Source of the DNA: Patescibacteria group bacterium | Lineage (GTDB): Bacteria > Patescibacteriota > Doudnabacteria > UBA920 | Length of the DNA: 64,000 nucleotides | Direction: 5' to 3' | Assembly: GCA_013387205.1 (NCBI GenBank) | Contig: WARV01000009.1 | Location: 667-64,666 of the forward strand | In this document: one piece after another, positions 3,705 through 55,593 of the stretch | How positions within the stretch are numbered: the first letter of the stretch is position 1 | Layout of the letters: every line of letters starts with the position of its first letter | Notes under the pieces: generated by a model | The model's input: only the letters and a program-made list of their open reading frames with translations | Database searches by the model: none | What the model was told of the DNA's origin: nothing | Program-made: the position numbers and the translations under genes

Positions 3705-3932
3705 AAGGCCCCACGCCAGCTGGACCTTGCGGTCCCATACCAGTTTCCCGGTATGGCTCGTGAAAGCGCTGGACGTAGGGTCCAGTATCTTTCACGAGTC
3801 TTTTTCACCATGCCAGCGGTTGCCCGCTGGTTTAGGCTACTTTTATAAATTGTTAATGTAATTATACCACTTAATTGTAAGGTTTTAAAGCTCCTTTCTG
3901 CCCTTTGGGCAATGTAGACAGTACCGCAAGGT

Positions 3933-24859: not shown

Positions 24860-25077
24860 AAAACTCCTTCCTATTTTTTAATACTTACAGCTTTCCAGCG
24901 GCTAAATTGCCCCGCCAGCTGGCGGATTAGCCGTAGGAAAGCATTTAAACAACATTATAAATAGTACCTATTAATAGTATATACCCTAAATAACGCATAA
25001 ACAAAGGGGTGGTTAACTAAGCACTATAAAAACAGCCCCTTCTTAACAGATTGGGGCTGTGCCTGCTGCTTAAAGAG

Positions 25078-50060: not shown

Positions 50061-50294
50061 TCCTCCTCCTTTCTGCCTGTAGTTATAAATTATACCTATA
50101 AATCCGAAAAAGTCTAGAATAAGTTTACTACTTAAATAAAAAACACAAGCTGGTGCTAATGTTCTTTATTTGGCTCGCCATACGAGACTTGAACTACCCC
50201 GAAGGACTCTGAGCAGGCACTTGGGTCTTGGGCTATGGGAAACGTAAATTAGTCAACTTCAATATGATTGAGTTTTAAGTCCCTTGTTTTACGT

Positions 50295-51368
50295 TCAACC
50301 TAATACCTGGGCTAATTTTCTGACTCCAACATTTTCTTGAAAGGTCAACGTTCCTTGAATAAAATCTTTTATATCTTTATGTAACTGATTGAGGCTGTTA
50401 AAGTCTAACTCATACCACTCTCCGCCGATATTATATTGTTTATACTTTTTATGTAAGTATCTTTCCAGAATCCAAGCTTTATCAGTCCTATAATAATTGT
50501 AGATTTCAATCTGATTCGGGTTTCCAGTTTGTATATTACTGACGCGCTGTTTCAAATTTTGAGTCACACCGATTTTGAAATTGCTGGTTCCAAGAGAACG
50601 AACTATATAAAGCCCTAATTCATCGTTAGCTACGTCGTACACAACATTCTCAGCAAGGTTGCCTTCTTTATAAACCCGTCCGTTAAGTCTAGCCACACGA
50701 CCAAAACCATCATTCATTAAACTGAACCCCAAATCTTCCAACATCCATTCTTGGGCGTGATAAACCGGATCTTTATCATATTCTTTCAGCACATGGCAAA
50801 CTTTTTTGGCAACAGCGTCCCGGTAGTCGTAACCTTCGTAATTTTCGTGAAACCTGGCCGCTTGTGAAGAATTGGTAGCCACAATAAACCAATTCTCATC
50901 ATTGTCCTTGGTCGTAACCCAATATAGATGTTTAGGCTTTGTATACAAAGCTGCTCGCGTAATTAAATGTTTATTTACTATGTAAGAATCTTCACCTTCA
51001 AAGCTATATAGCTGATTTTTATCATCCAAATCCAGCCATTCGTAAGTATTTTTAACAATGCCGCCACGATAAATAACTCTAACACCAATCATATCTAAGA
51101 ACCTGTCGCAACAGTGGATATCTTGATATTTTAATATGGTATATTTTTTCCTAGTGGAAAACTCCCGGTCTATAGAAAAACGGAATGATTCTCCAAGTAG
51201 CTTTTGAATGCACTCTTTAATGTATGATAAATCATCCGTCTGAGCCATTTCCCATCCACGGACGTCTTTATATGGCAGTTGATACTTAAATTCTGAACGG
51301 TTTAACCTGTGGGCTAAAATCTTGCCATTAGGGTGCGTTATTAGAAATCGTAGGCCTGTGATATACAT
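50295..51368 (-). CDS. T5orf172 (GIY-YIG superfamily, MUG113-like) C-terminal domain protein with unknown N-terminal domain
   Basis: The C-terminus GLYIVRSLGTSNFKIGVTQNLKQRVSNIQTGNPNQIEIY...ERYLHKKYKQYNIGGEWYEL matches the T5orf172 pattern (YKIGxTxNxxxRxxxLxTGxP ... gEWFel). It lies ~70 nt downstream of the intron-containing tRNA. Confidence 0.65.
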   Translation of the reverse strand: MYITGLRFLITHPNGKILAHRLNRSEFKYQLPYKDVRGWEMAQTDDLSYIKECIQKLLGESFRFSIDREFSTRKKYTILKYQDIHCCDRFLDMIGVRVIYRGGIVKNTYEWLDLDDKNQLYSFEGEDSYIVNKHLITRAALYTKPKHLYWVTTKDNDENWFIVATNSSQAARFHENYEGYDYRDAVAKKVCHVLKEYDKDPVYHAQEWMLEDLGFSLMNDGFGRVARLNGRVYKEGNLAENVVYDVANDELGLYIVRSLGTSNFKIGVTQNLKQRVSNIQTGNPNQIEIYNYYRTDKAWILERYLHKKYKQYNIGGEWYELDFNSLNQLHKDIKDFIQGTLTFQENVGVRKLAQVLG

Positions 51369-51438
51369 ATATCTTTCAATTATTGACTAAATAAAAAAAC
51401 AAAAACCACCAAATTTTTGATTTTTAGTGGTTTTTGTT

Positions 51439-51812
51439 TGGCTCGGGAGGTGGGATTCGAACCCACGGCCAATCGATTACACTTATCCTGATGTTTCCAA
51501 AAGGGGTGGACTATATCATCATCCTATTCCAGGTGGCTCGGGAGGTGGGATTCGAACCCATCTCTTACCATCTAAAAATATAGGATGCGAGGCGCTTCGT
51601 TCCAAAGTTTTTAGAACTACTCCCATAAAGGGATAGTCTCTGAACCTTCCCGCCTGTTGAGCGGGCTTGGCTGCTGATTACCATTTTACAGGTTTCCAGC
51701 AATTCACCTCGTTTTTCCATTCCCAATTACTTGGGAAGGCTGCTAATGTTTGATCTCCTTTAGAGCGAGATCAGGTCTACAGTCGATTGCTCTACCGCTG
51801 AGCTACTCCCGA
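51439..51812 (-). tRNA. tRNA-Asn(GUU) interrupted by a 299-nt group I intron (exons 51812-51779 and 51479-51439)
   Basis: The joined exons give a canonical 75-nt cloverleaf: acceptor UCGGGAG/CUCCCGA, D stem GCUC/GAGC, anticodon stem AUCGA/UCGAU, loop CUGUUAA, T stem GUGGG/CCCAC, T loop UUCGAAU, G73 and an encoded CCA. Confidence 0.7.
51480..51778 (-). ncRNA. group I self-splicing intron (IC-like core) in anticodon loop between nt 35/36
   Basis: In the minus-strand reading: P1 candidate CUGU/GCAG, P2 CCCAAGUAAUUGGG, P element AAUUGCUGGAAAC, Q AAUCAGCAGCC, P6 CCCGCUCAACAGGCGGG, R GUUCAGAGACUA, S GAUAUAGUCC, and a terminal G before the 3' exon. The P8 region is enlarged and contains a tRNA 3'-half-like copy (51535-51562). 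Confidence 0.65.
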
Positions 51813-52078
51813 ATATGTTGTTTTATAAATTGCCTGCCTCGATGGCTTTTAAGCTGTTTTTCTCTTATCAAGGCTTGTTGGCGAGTATCAACATTTTCTG
51901 AATATATTAGTTGCCACTCACCATCAAAACTTGAAGTGTATCCCTTAAAAGTATGTTCGTTATGTAGCCTTAAACGCTCTGTTAAATTTTCGGTTTGACC
52001 GATATATATTTTCTTATGTTTTGGATTATAGATAGCGTAAACGCTAAACATTAGTGTCGATTGCTCTACCTCCGCCAT
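51803..52078 (-). CDS. small GIY-YIG nuclease family protein (YhbQ/UPF0213-like)
   Basis: VYAIYNPKHKKIYIGQTENLTERLRLHN is the GIY-YIG motif pair. The 3' end (IRE-stop) overlaps tRNA nt 1-10. The 5' end overlaps a duplicated tRNA 5' fragment. The start may be the second Met (52051). Confidence 0.7.
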   Translation of the reverse strand: MAEVEQSTLMFSVYAIYNPKHKKIYIGQTENLTERLRLHNEHTFKGYTSSFDGEWQLIYSENVDTRQQALIREKQLKSHRGRQFIKQHIRE

Positions 52079-52112
52079 CCGCCAACTGGCGGAGGCGGAG
52101 AGCTACTCCCGA
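52056..52112 (-). other. duplicated tRNA-Asn 5' fragment (acceptor/D/anticodon-stem 5' side) with 29-nt palindromic insertion in the D-loop
   Basis: The minus-strand read TCGGGAGTAGCTC[TCCGCCTCCGCCAGTTGGCGGATGGCGGA]GGTAGAGCAATCGAC matches tRNA nt 1-13 and 18-32. Confidence 0.7.
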
Positions 52113-54474: not shown

Positions 54475-55593
54475 ATGGAAACAAATATTAAAACCAAACC
54501 AATATTCAAAGCCAAAAAATTTTGGATTGCTGTTTTAGCATTCTTGGTGCTGATTGTAATTTATTTTAAAGTGTCAGATTCGGGCCGCGATAAAATTTTT
54601 TCAGTTGAAAATATCACGCAGGTAAAATCTGCCGAAAAGCAGGCTGTTGCTGAAACGCCAAAGCTAGATATGGCAAGCTATGATAAAAAACTAAATGAAA
54701 TCGCAAATAATCTTACTAACGCATCAGCTACTTCACCCTCACCTTTATCCTCTCCCATCCAGGGAGAGGAGTGGAAAAAAGAATGGCCGGTAAAAACTGT
54801 TTATCCAAATGCCGGAGCGCTTTTGCCGTTTAACCGGATTGTTGCGTATTACGGCAATTTGTATTCTAAGAATATGGGCGTTTTGGGAGAATATCCAGAA
54901 GATGAAATGCTGAAAAGGCTAAATGAAGAAGTGAAAAAATGGGAAGAGGCTGACCCAAACACTCCCGTAATTCCGGCTTTGCACTATATTGCAGTGGTGG
55001 CGCAAAAAGGCGCTGGCCGCGACGGCAAACACCGGTTGCGCATGCCGGATAAGGAAATAGACAAGGTGCTGAAAATGGCAGAAAAAATTAACGGCATTGT
55101 TTTTTTGGACGTGCAGGTGGGAAAAAGCAATGTGCAGGCCGAAATTCCGCTGCTGGAAAAATATTTAAAACTTCCCCAGGTGCATTTGGGTATTGATCCG
55201 GAGTTTTCCATGAAGAGCGGGGCAGTCCCAGGCACATCCATTGGCACGCTGGACAGCCAGGACATAAACTTTGCGGCAGACTACCTGTCGAAAATCGTCA
55301 AAGACAACAACCTGCCTCCCAAAGTTTTGGTCATCCATCGCTTTACGCAAAAAATGGTAACGAGCTTTAAAGACATTAAGCCCTTGCCCGAAGTACAGAT
55401 TGTAATGAACATGGACGGTTTTGGCGGGCAAGCCAACAAATTAAACACTTACAAGCAATACATTTCCAAACAGCCCGTGCAGTTTACCGGCTTTAAGCTG
55501 TTTTATAAGAATGATGCGGCTAAGGGAGCAATGCTTACTCCCGAAAGGCTTCTTAAACTTACCCCCATTCCGGTTTATATACAATACCAATAG
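54475..55593 (+). CDS. hypothetical membrane-anchored extracytoplasmic protein (possible TIM-barrel glycoside-hydrolase-like fold)
   Basis: An N-terminal TM and an alternating beta/alpha pattern in a ~330-aa ectodomain. No firm catalytic motif. Confidence 0.4.
   Translation: METNIKTKPIFKAKKFWIAVLAFLVLIVIYFKVSDSGRDKIFSVENITQVKSAEKQAVAETPKLDMASYDKKLNEIANNLTNASATSPSPLSSPIQGEEWKKEWPVKTVYPNAGALLPFNRIVAYYGNLYSKNMGVLGEYPEDEMLKRLNEEVKKWEEADPNTPVIPALHYIAVVAQKGAGRDGKHRLRMPDKEIDKVLKMAEKINGIVFLDVQVGKSNVQAEIPLLEKYLKLPQVHLGIDPEFSMKSGAVPGTSIGTLDSQDINFAADYLSKIVKDNNLPPKVLVIHRFTQKMVTSFKDIKPLPEVQIVMNMDGFGGQANKLNTYKQYISKQPVQFTGFKLFYKNDAAKGAMLTPERLLKLTPIPVYIQYQ

Follow-up and report, generated by a model that had tools for sequence, protein, structure and literature searches.

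Why should a small open reading frame (ORF) of the GIY-YIG type end inside a tRNA gene and be preceded by a second, hairpin-broken copy of the 5′ part of that same gene? The question is raised by a locus on the minus strand of a 64,000-nt stretch of DNA (hereafter the window; contig WARV01000009.1, positions 667 to 64,666, assembly GCA_013387205.1) from a Patescibacteria group bacterium of the Doudnabacteria (UBA920). The initial annotation had listed, in minus-strand order, a duplicated tRNA 5′ fragment, a GIY-YIG ORF, an intron-bearing tRNA-Asn gene and a T5orf172 protein, and all four were recovered at identical coordinates (Table 1). It had described a free-standing GIY-YIG cassette that sits in the 5′ side of the tRNA gene with the 5′ part regenerated, which agrees with the displaced copy found upstream and the intact tRNA downstream; the overlap of ORF and tRNA and the duplication, which it had treated as peculiar to this locus, proved to be conserved hallmarks of a large family. 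The explanation favoured here, on balance, is that the locus belongs to a large class of dynamic, probably mobile cassettes that reside inside tRNA genes and regenerate their 5′ part.

In the displaced copy, 52115-52100 equals 51815-51800 (16 of 16 nt; tRNA positions 1-13 plus 3 nt upstream) and 52070-52056 equals 51796-51782 (15 of 15 nt; tRNA positions 17-32). The element between these two stretches had been reported as a perfect 29-nt palindrome within the D-loop; its presence there stood, but its perfection did not, as the hairpin (TCCGCC-TCCGCC-AGTT-GGCGGA-T-GGCGGA) has a one-base bulge and 14-nt arms that are 86% complementary. At the other end, tRNA positions 1-10 double as the last codons and stop of the ORF (ATT CGG GAG TAG), as the initial annotation had it, with U8-A9-G10 as the stop codon; joining the two exons yields a canonical 75-nt tRNA-Asn(GUU) according to ARAGORN. 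From promoter to tRNA, the unit spans ~300 bp, contains the 82-aa ORF as its sole gene and encodes no tyrosine or serine recombinase, with a displaced tRNA fragment at one boundary and the restored tRNA at the other. The locus is no assembly artefact, because a second, independent assembly (L081 from SRR19769811; L numbers are labels of the loci in relatives' stretches) is identical over 1013 nt. The arrangement is also far beyond chance, because it was found again in more than 70 other genomes, in line with the earlier judgement that a coincidental match is unlikely.

Table 1. Coordinates of the cassette, its host tRNA gene and the flanking features in the window.
Feature	Position	Strand	Remark
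Promoter-like TTGCCA-17 nt-TAAAAT with TG extension	52169-52141	minus	10/12 match; sole good candidate for fragment, ORF and tRNA
Displaced copy, tRNA-Asn positions 1-13 (acceptor 5′ strand, U8, A9, D-stem 5′ strand)	52112-52100	minus	repeat
GC-rich hairpin TCCGCCTCCGCCAGTTGGCGGATGGCGGA, 29 nt, in place of D-loop nt 14-16	52099-52071	minus	inverted repeat
Displaced copy, tRNA-Asn positions 17-32 (D-loop 3′ part, D-stem 3′ strand, anticodon-stem 5′ strand)	52070-52056	minus	
GIY-YIG ORF, 82 aa, MFSVYAIYNPKHKKIYIGQT...FIKQHIRE*	ATG at 52051, end 51803	minus	Pfam PF01541
tRNA-Asn(GUU) exon 1, positions 1-35	51812-51779	minus	
Group I intron, 299 nt, at 35/36 (after U, ends in G)	51778-51480	minus	RF00028
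27-nt copy of tRNA T-arm, acceptor 3′ strand and CCA, in intron P8 loop	51560-51534	minus	
tRNA-Asn exon 2, positions 36-76, CCA encoded	51479-51439	minus	ARAGORN on spliced sequence
Terminator-like hairpin, then T-run, directly after tRNA	51439-51397	minus	17-nt arms, 94% complementary
T5orf172/MUG113 protein, 357 aa; domain at residues 259-332	51368-50295	minus	MUG113 E 7.7e-16

The generality of this layout was determined by a family survey in GTDB species genomes, for which the best 80 loci of at least 544 relatives, all 80 from Patescibacteria, were analysed. A tRNA gene on the same strand lies directly downstream of the ORF in 70 of the 80 loci, being tRNA-Asn(GUU) in 69 and tRNA-Lys(UUU) in one (L040); the remaining loci, without a called downstream tRNA, are mostly contigs that end inside the tRNA. 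For 65 loci the overlap between ORF and tRNA could be scored, and it measures 10-11 nt in 40 (stop at U8-A9-G10), 21 nt in eight (C terminus ‘...VAQR*', the stop being the UAG of GGUAGAGC) and 37 nt in three (the stop being the UAA of the anticodon loop). On the upstream side, just before the ATG, about 74 of the 80 loci carry a 5′ part of the local tRNA that is broken by the palindrome TCCGCCAGCTGGCGGA. The displaced tRNA copy is broken by a hairpin, yet an intact tRNA adjoins the ORF in every locus.

Across loci, the fragment starts at tRNA position 1 (±2 nt), on which ground a further candidate, the 3′ end of an older ORF ahead of the fragment, was rejected; the two loci with similarity further upstream (L026 and L062) carry extra hairpin copies. 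In about 51 loci the hairpin comes after tRNA position 13, in about seven it comes after position 8, and both placements occur among the closest relatives of the window (L082 versus L084 and L085). The 13-mer 5′ of the hairpin is identical to the tRNA of its own locus in 49 of 70 loci, as compared with 4.5% of non-self pairs, while 3′ of the hairpin the similarity to the local tRNA mostly fades past the D-stem. At L040, where the target is tRNA-Lys, the fragment is Lys-like as well.

The window hairpin is an extended variant of TCCGCCAGCTGGCGGA, and the same variant is present in L082, L005, L042 and L049. Its stem changes in a compensatory manner in other members (TCCGGC...GCCGGA, TCCGCT...AGCGGA and TTCGCT...AGCGAA; L037, L041, L046, L057 and L064), two variants of the TCCGCCAGCTGGCGGA stems give G·U pairs on the sense strand, and the central four bases vary freely. 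Two candidate functions of the hairpin were rejected: sequestration of a Shine-Dalgarno sequence, as 17-35 nt separate the GGAGG from the ATG and loci with the hairpin after position 8 have no GGAGG, and transcription termination, as no T-run comes after the hairpin. Neither the leader nor the downstream elements matched any Rfam family.

Promoter-like sites (score of at least 9 of 12) were found upstream of the fragment in 27 of 60 loci, and upstream of the intact tRNA in merely 2 of 60, as compared with 3 of 60 random windows. Because the promoter-like sites precede the fragment and not the tRNA, the tRNA must be transcribed through the cassette. An independent sign of the fragment and hairpin comes from protein databases, where upstream-extended ORF calls translate them, as SGVALRQLAEVE, PPAGGG or SASWR in one subfamily and as CLPAGR, PACRQAG or LPAGRQG in another. 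The N terminus MAEVEQST, which the initial annotation had assigned to the duplicate, turned out to be such a read-through of the hairpin by the ORF caller: nearly all homologues are 82-83 aa long and start at the position of the downstream ATG 52051, which is therefore almost certainly the real start.

What kind of protein the cassette encodes was addressed by sequence profiles and a structural model. The ORF matches the Pfam family PF01541 (GIY-YIG) with an E value of 5.7e-16 (59 bits; cutoff 22.6), and Y5, Y16, G18, R26, H30 and E64 are invariant among 37 homologues, so that the two Tyr, the Arg, the His and the Glu of catalysis are kept; after E64, no invariant Asn was found across the homologues. 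An AlphaFold model of the 82-aa protein (pLDDT 95.4) has the secondary-structure order E-E-H-E-H-H of the GIY-YIG fold. When the Protein Data Bank (PDB) was searched with this model, the top matches were all GIY-YIG domains, with the UPF0213 structures 1zg2 and 1ywl first; the TM-score on the query (TMq) was 0.63-0.67 for nuclease domains of eukaryotic Slx1 (6seh, 4xm5 and 7cq3) and lower for I-TevI (0.49) and UvrC (0.46). A profile search of PDB sequences likewise returned 1ywl (UPF0213 EF2693; E 9e-4) as the best match, followed by the catalytic domain of I-TevI. Because the UPF0213 and Slx1 structures are nearer than those of UvrC and I-TevI, the protein is placed, by sequence and predicted structure, in the minimal, structure-specific Slx1/UPF0213 branch of GIY-YIG proteins, the Slx1-like branch being that defined by Dunin-Horkawicz et al. 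(PMC1564403).

Neither sequence nor model contains a separate DNA-binding module, the entire 82-aa protein being one catalytic domain. The classical homing-endonuclease identity suggested in the initial annotation was not supported, the protein being a minimal domain of Slx1/UPF0213 type. To our knowledge, bacterial UPF0213 proteins are widespread and have no clear established function. A protein search returned 173 close relatives, almost all of 82-83 aa, of which the named ones belong to Patescibacteria, and a profile search of 1.84 billion cluster representatives returned 784 clusters at E ≤1e-10 and 9834 at E ≤1e-3. Among Patescibacteria, protein identity is 0.629 within classes and 0.626 between classes.

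The initial annotation had proposed comparing related genomes and metagenome bins for presence or absence of the cassette, and empty-site alleles do exist. A metagenome scan with the first 29 nt of the window tRNA-Asn as the pattern returned 36 loci, 35 of them informative. About 27 of the 35 are empty, with a plain promoter, no ORF, and with or without the 35/36 intron; six carry more distant GIY-YIG subfamilies in the same layout (10-nt overlap, ORF end ‘...IRE*') with different GC hairpins; and two hold remnants, namely a C-terminal ORF stub (L110) and a lone fragment (L119). Gene X (54475-55593 in the window) has orthologues of 66-67% identity, transcribed divergently relative to tRNA-Asn, in L091 and L096, which are empty, and in L113, which carries another subfamily; partly syntenic loci of related genomes therefore show three states, namely this cassette, another subfamily and an empty site. 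The 8-kb stretch of L082 has no clear orthologues in common with the window.

A second subfamily of GIY-YIG proteins shares 42% identity with that of the window and is equipped with its own hairpin (CCTGCCTGCCGGCAGGCAGG); it also occurs at tRNA-Asn in Patescibacteria and has relatives of ~60-65% identity in cultured Bacteroidota and Ignavibacteria. It was located at tRNA-Arg(CCU) in Pedobacter sp. KR3-3 and in Cyclobacterium plantarum (where one assembly holds three tandem units and another two, with an in-frame stop in the second unit), at an rpsP-linked tRNA-Arg(CCU) locus with two units (L139) or one (L142 and L144) according to the sample, at tRNA-Arg(ACG) with a 15-nt overlap and the stop in the D-loop, and at tRNA-Leu(CAG) in Ignavibacteriaceae. 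The fragments of this subfamily comprise the local tRNA 5′ part up to position 26, 43 or ~65, and CCTGCCTGCCGGCAGGCAGG interrupts them where the cloverleaf has a loop or junction, namely at 21/22, at 26/27 or in the T-loop. The comparison of subfamilies and tRNAs thus indicates that the hairpin travels with the ORF whereas the flanking tRNA sequence is local: the ORF subfamily is coupled to its hairpin, and the tRNA-derived sequence 5′ of the hairpin is of local origin.

Cassettes also accumulate and rearrange. In L007, both subfamilies are stacked before one tRNA-Asn, each ORF being preceded by a fragment with its own hairpin; the suggestion that fragments decay in older cassettes, drawn from this locus, was withdrawn, as both L007 fragments match the local tRNA on the full sequence. 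L126 has a permuted order (intact tRNA, ORF, hairpin-bearing copy), in L049 old outer tRNA halves flank the ORF together with a different tRNA-Asn allele, and L013, L029 and L070 carry second or truncated copies. The cassette architecture is conserved over hundreds of genomes, and individual cassettes are dispensable, variable in copy number, stackable and decaying, at five tRNA identities in two phyla. A search for a vector returned no family members among IMG/VR viral contigs (distant N-terminal matches only), PLSDB plasmids or INPHARED phages.

The intron of the window tRNA-Asn matches Rfam RF00028 (87.6 bits, E 5.6e-21). Because its 299 nt hide the gene, ARAGORN reports no tRNA in the entire window despite the tRNA-Asn present. 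Introns of this type, which belong to group IA, lie at 35/36 of tRNA-Asn in Patescibacteria and escape standard tools, were published in 2026 (PMC13011429); according to that paper, tRNA genes with such introns are in some cases missed by ARAGORN, introns related to that of the window self-splice, and some Patescibacteria introns of the 35/36 type encode HNH homing endonucleases, while searches of its text found no mention of GIY-YIG or of a duplication. The intron is present in only ~10 of the 80 cassette loci. L082 encodes a 79% identical protein behind the same extended hairpin at a nearly identical tRNA that has no intron, whereas L093 has a homologous intron and an ordinary promoter but no cassette; with cassette only in L082 and intron only in L093, all four combinations of cassette and intron exist. 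The intron is thus independent of the cassette.

The intron also contains a third repeat that the initial annotation missed, a copy of the tRNA 3′ end in the P8 loop (51560-51534 equals 51465-51439, a perfect 27-nt repeat). The L093 intron has the same feature (30 of 30 nt), including its copy of the tRNA 3′ end, and the predicted fold of the window copy is a lengthened P8 hairpin with the T-arm at its tip. The P8 copy is part of the intron lineage and not of the GIY-YIG cassette; a mimic of the tRNA end and a relic of recombination are among the possibilities for its nature.

The T5orf172 protein, which the initial annotation had cast as a second nuclease of the complex, is an unrelated neighbour of the cassette. 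A tblastn search of all other loci among L001-L121 returned no homologue except an identical copy in L081, PHROGs gave only domain-level matches, and NCBIfam gave none. An insertion of this gene on the 3′ side with a tRNA 3′ duplicate of its own (50240-50170) was considered but not supported, as only non-colinear 9-11-nt matches and no tRNA call were obtained there. The segment in question (50170-50240, minus strand, 71 nt after the T5orf172 gene) ends in ...GGCGAGCCA, shows weak acceptor-like pairing (TTCCCAT/ATGGCGA) and is called by neither ARAGORN nor Rfam, and so may be a decayed tRNA or nothing.

A cassette thus comprises the 5′ part of its target tRNA from position 1, broken by the hairpin of the subfamily, together with an ~80-aa GIY-YIG gene of Slx1/UPF0213 type. 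It lies between the tRNA's own promoter and the intact tRNA; under the favoured explanation, it has in effect split the tRNA gene in its 5′ half and supplied a fresh 5′ part. We infer that the cassette is selfish and mobile and that the tRNA-derived sequence serves as a homology arm: spread or persistence would proceed by recombination through tRNA homology, with the structure-specific nuclease making or resolving the DNA intermediates. Two routes can be envisaged. In the first, break-induced gene conversion, a cassette-less tRNA would be cut at the hairpin position and repaired from an occupied allele, and the repair would copy the hairpin, the ORF and a fresh 5′ part. In the second, a unit of ORF and hairpin-bearing 5′ part would integrate and excise in the Campbell manner. 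Only crossovers 5′ of the hairpin would give a viable product, which would account for the position of the hairpin in the upstream copy, and a nearly full-length copy of the element could yield the permuted form of L126. An Slx1-like cutter of branched DNA would fit this second route, or local amplification, better than sequence-specific homing.

The hairpin itself may keep the displaced copy from being either a target or a functional tRNA. It would also render most ORF-deleting recombination lethal: deletion through the homology 3′ of the hairpin would place the hairpin in the only functional tRNA, so that viable loss of the ORF would have only the 8-26 nt 5′ of the hairpin to work with. A bolder version, in which the cassettes are a new class of minimal ~300-bp mobile element that integrates, excises and amplifies at tRNA genes through homology, with the hairpin as a ‘poison pill', is put forward only tentatively; if true, it would give the widespread UPF0213 family its first clear biological role.

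Several points weigh against mobility in general. No transfer event, excised form or cleavage activity was observed, and mobility is drawn from distribution alone. Copies were absent from the viral contigs, phages and plasmids searched, which leaves the cassette without a known vector. As for the flat identity across classes, a very short protein under strong constraint could show it in the absence of horizontal transfer. Because the protein lacks a DNA-binding domain and is of Slx1/UPF0213 lineage, sequence-specific homing is doubtful, and because an intact tRNA adjoins the cassette, the usual immunity by which insertion destroys the target does not apply. A cellular, RNA-related role is conceivable since Slx1-like domains are linked to methyltransferase genes (PMC1564403). 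Finally, how the hairpin arrived within sequence from different local tRNAs is left unexplained by the model.

The alternatives were weighed against the same observations. Classical homing is a narrower version of the favoured explanation, in which a sequence-specific GIY-YIG enzyme would cut the D-arm of a cassette-less tRNA at the hairpin site and the cassette would be copied in by double-strand-break repair. The presence/absence polymorphism at identical targets agrees with it, as do the sequence contexts of the hairpins (GCTC^AGC^GG and GAGT^AGC^TC in subfamily 1; ATA^GA(A/G) and TTC^GAT in subfamily 2), and a precedent exists in the GIY-YIG enzyme SegB of phage T4, which is encoded in a cluster of tRNA genes (PMC2330249) and also drives segmental amplification (PMC13096335). 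Against it, the protein has 82 aa and no DNA-binding domain and is structurally nearer to Slx1/UPF0213 than to I-TevI or UvrC, an intact and presumably cleavable tRNA is present in every occupied locus, and the homology arm 5′ of the hairpin measures just 8-26 nt. Classical homing in this strict form is therefore regarded as unlikely, although still a contender.

Alternatively, the ORF might be a resident cellular gene, a UPF0213/Slx1-like nuclease with a host role in tRNA or RNA metabolism or in keeping highly transcribed tRNA genes stable. The tRNA-like leader, with its added hairpin arm, would then be a regulatory or stabilizing 5′-untranslated region (for example, an autoregulatory binding or cleavage site) that is kept tRNA-like by selection or gene conversion, and the distribution would result from vertical descent with frequent loss. 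Features consistent with such a role are the ORF, intact and with invariant catalytic residues in almost all loci; hairpins that fall at cloverleaf loops or junctions (8/9, D-loop, 21/22, 26/27 and T-loop); the compensatory stem changes, with G·U pairs on the sense strand in four variants; the apparent co-transcription of fragment, ORF and tRNA from one promoter; and the lack of a vector in the viral, phage and plasmid sets searched. Related proteins also point this way, as stand-alone Slx1-like domains are repeatedly linked or fused to methyltransferase genes (COG4123 and one TrmH fusion), and the TrmH orthologue fused to such a domain methylates tRNA position 18, according to PMC1564403. On the other hand, empty sites are common at identical tRNAs, the two subfamilies can be stacked at one tRNA, tandem copies, copy-number variation, pseudogenized copies and remnants occur, the target tRNA changes between lineages, and there is no class-level phylogenetic signal. 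A regulatory leader, moreover, needs neither an exact start at tRNA position 1 nor tracking of the local acceptor stem. On these grounds, a resident gene is judged rather unlikely.

Two further models are contradicted by distribution and unit size. In one, the fragment would be the scar of an island integrated at the tRNA and the GIY-YIG gene its leftover cargo. tRNA genes are indeed classical integration sites, a large serine recombinase (L082 4273-5949) and a tyrosine integrase (L136 1632-2655; missing in its sister contig, L137) immediately follow the 3′ end of cassette-bearing tRNAs, and tRNA 3′-end fragments are found downstream in eight loci; but the unit is ~300 bp and built in exactly the same way across hundreds of genomes, the 5′ side is free of integrases, fragment and promoter are immediate neighbours, and the association of hairpin with ORF subfamily holds across different tRNAs, which makes a scar highly improbable. 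Least probable of all is the collaborative intron/homing-endonuclease complex of the initial annotation, in which the enzyme would target intron-less tRNA-Asn, the intron would protect its own genome and T5orf172 would be a second nuclease: in the window, the ORF adjoins the intron-bearing tRNA and T5orf172 comes next, and introns of this type are known to encode HNH enzymes in some Patescibacteria (PMC13011429), but most cassette loci (including the close relative L082) lack the intron, L093 and many metagenome loci have that intron lineage but no cassette, the same cassette type sits at intron-less Arg, Leu and Lys tRNAs, and T5orf172 is absent from the other loci examined.

Of known systems, the phage T4 Seg proteins such as SegB come close in that a GIY-YIG gene lies free between genes in a tRNA region and is, as in the cassette, inherited with flanking tRNA sequence, SegB promoting tandem amplification of the tRNA locus (PMC2330249, PMC13096335). 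In contrast to the 82-aa, Slx1/UPF0213-like protein of the cassette, Seg proteins exceed 200 aa and have DNA-binding domains; their genes have neither a flanking tRNA duplicate nor a signature hairpin nor an overlap with a tRNA, all three of which the cassette has; and they are phage-borne, whereas the cassettes are chromosomal and were found in none of the phage and viral collections searched.

E. coli YhbQ belongs to the stand-alone Slx1-like UPF0213 group. Two other members of UPF0213 (E. faecalis EF2693, 1ywl, and B. halodurans BH0048, 1zg2) are the best PDB matches by sequence and, with Slx1, by structure, and share with the cassette protein a minimal domain, no auxiliary domain and no invariant C-terminal Asn (PMC1564403). 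The genomic context described for UPF0213 in that paper comprises methyltransferase genes only, with no tRNA nesting, 5′ duplication or hairpin.

As for tRNA-targeting integrative elements, these too leave a displaced tRNA fragment on one side and a regenerated tRNA on the other. Such elements rely on a recombinase of the tyrosine or serine family, typically exchange the 3′ part and span kilobases, whereas the cassette has no recombinase, replaces the 5′ part, measures ~300 bp and carries a hairpin in its displaced fragment. The window intron, which is no part of the cassette, is exactly the published 35/36 tRNA-Asn group I type of PMC13011429. Thus, the intron was already known, and the cassette resembles both free-standing homing genes and tRNA-restoring elements but fails the defining features of both. 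There is a substantial chance that it represents a distinct class of minimal mobile element; no description of it was found in the open-access literature, a search that does not prove novelty.

If mobile, the cassettes would be among the smallest autonomous elements known, and their nuclease lineage (Slx1/UPF0213) has not previously been tied to mobility. In addition, an essential tRNA that is probably single-copy comes to be transcribed by way of a nuclease gene. In the main family, where the ORF stop lies inside the tRNA and both are on one transcript, RNase P processing and nuclease translation should therefore compete, and RNase P cleavage should leave an mRNA without a stop codon, which may be a built-in limit on nuclease expression. 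The annotation of Patescibacteria genomes is affected as well, because ORF callers extend the genes through the hairpin and tRNA finders miss the window tRNA. Cultured hosts (Pedobacter and Cyclobacterium) make experiments possible.

Further copies of tRNA ends and palindromes were observed around these genes. The 3′ side of the tRNA also appears to be a variable hotspot, because many contigs break off inside the tRNA or shortly beyond it. L032 (2860-3135), L049 (1362-1460), L045 and L065 carry copies of the tRNA-Asn 3′ end at a distance of 100-300 nt downstream from the intact gene, and in L032 and L049 the same palindromes adjoin them; the outer fragments of L049, one 5′ and one 3′, pair mutually but differ from the resident tRNA. 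L059 (2848-2952) harbours a full-length pseudo-tRNA-Asn just downstream of the real one, with acceptor stem and GUU anticodon arm intact and with the D-loop and T-arm each swapped for cassette-type palindromes. In distant Patescibacteria, a conserved element of ~150 nt, without a match in Rfam, lies 3′ of tRNA-Asn (L012 2840-3010, L073 2270-2440, also L009 and L070) and is composed, in order, of a terminator, an inverted T-arm copy, a hairpin of sequence GGGTCGGGAAA(A)CGGGAGTTT(T)CCCG and the tRNA 3′ end in direct orientation. L114 and L120 have tRNA-Asn genes with an intron but no cassette, each preceded at ~100 nt by the tRNA-Asn 3′ end in inverted orientation. Elsewhere in the window, a second cassette palindrome (CCCGCCAGCTGGCGGA) occupies 24911-24926 and caps an inverted repeat of ~52 nt between genes; 0.07 such matches per window are expected by chance. 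LOOT RNA (Rfam RF03000) was identified both in the window (3722-3838, minus strand; 87.3 bits) and in L082 (7796-7925; 58.7 bits).

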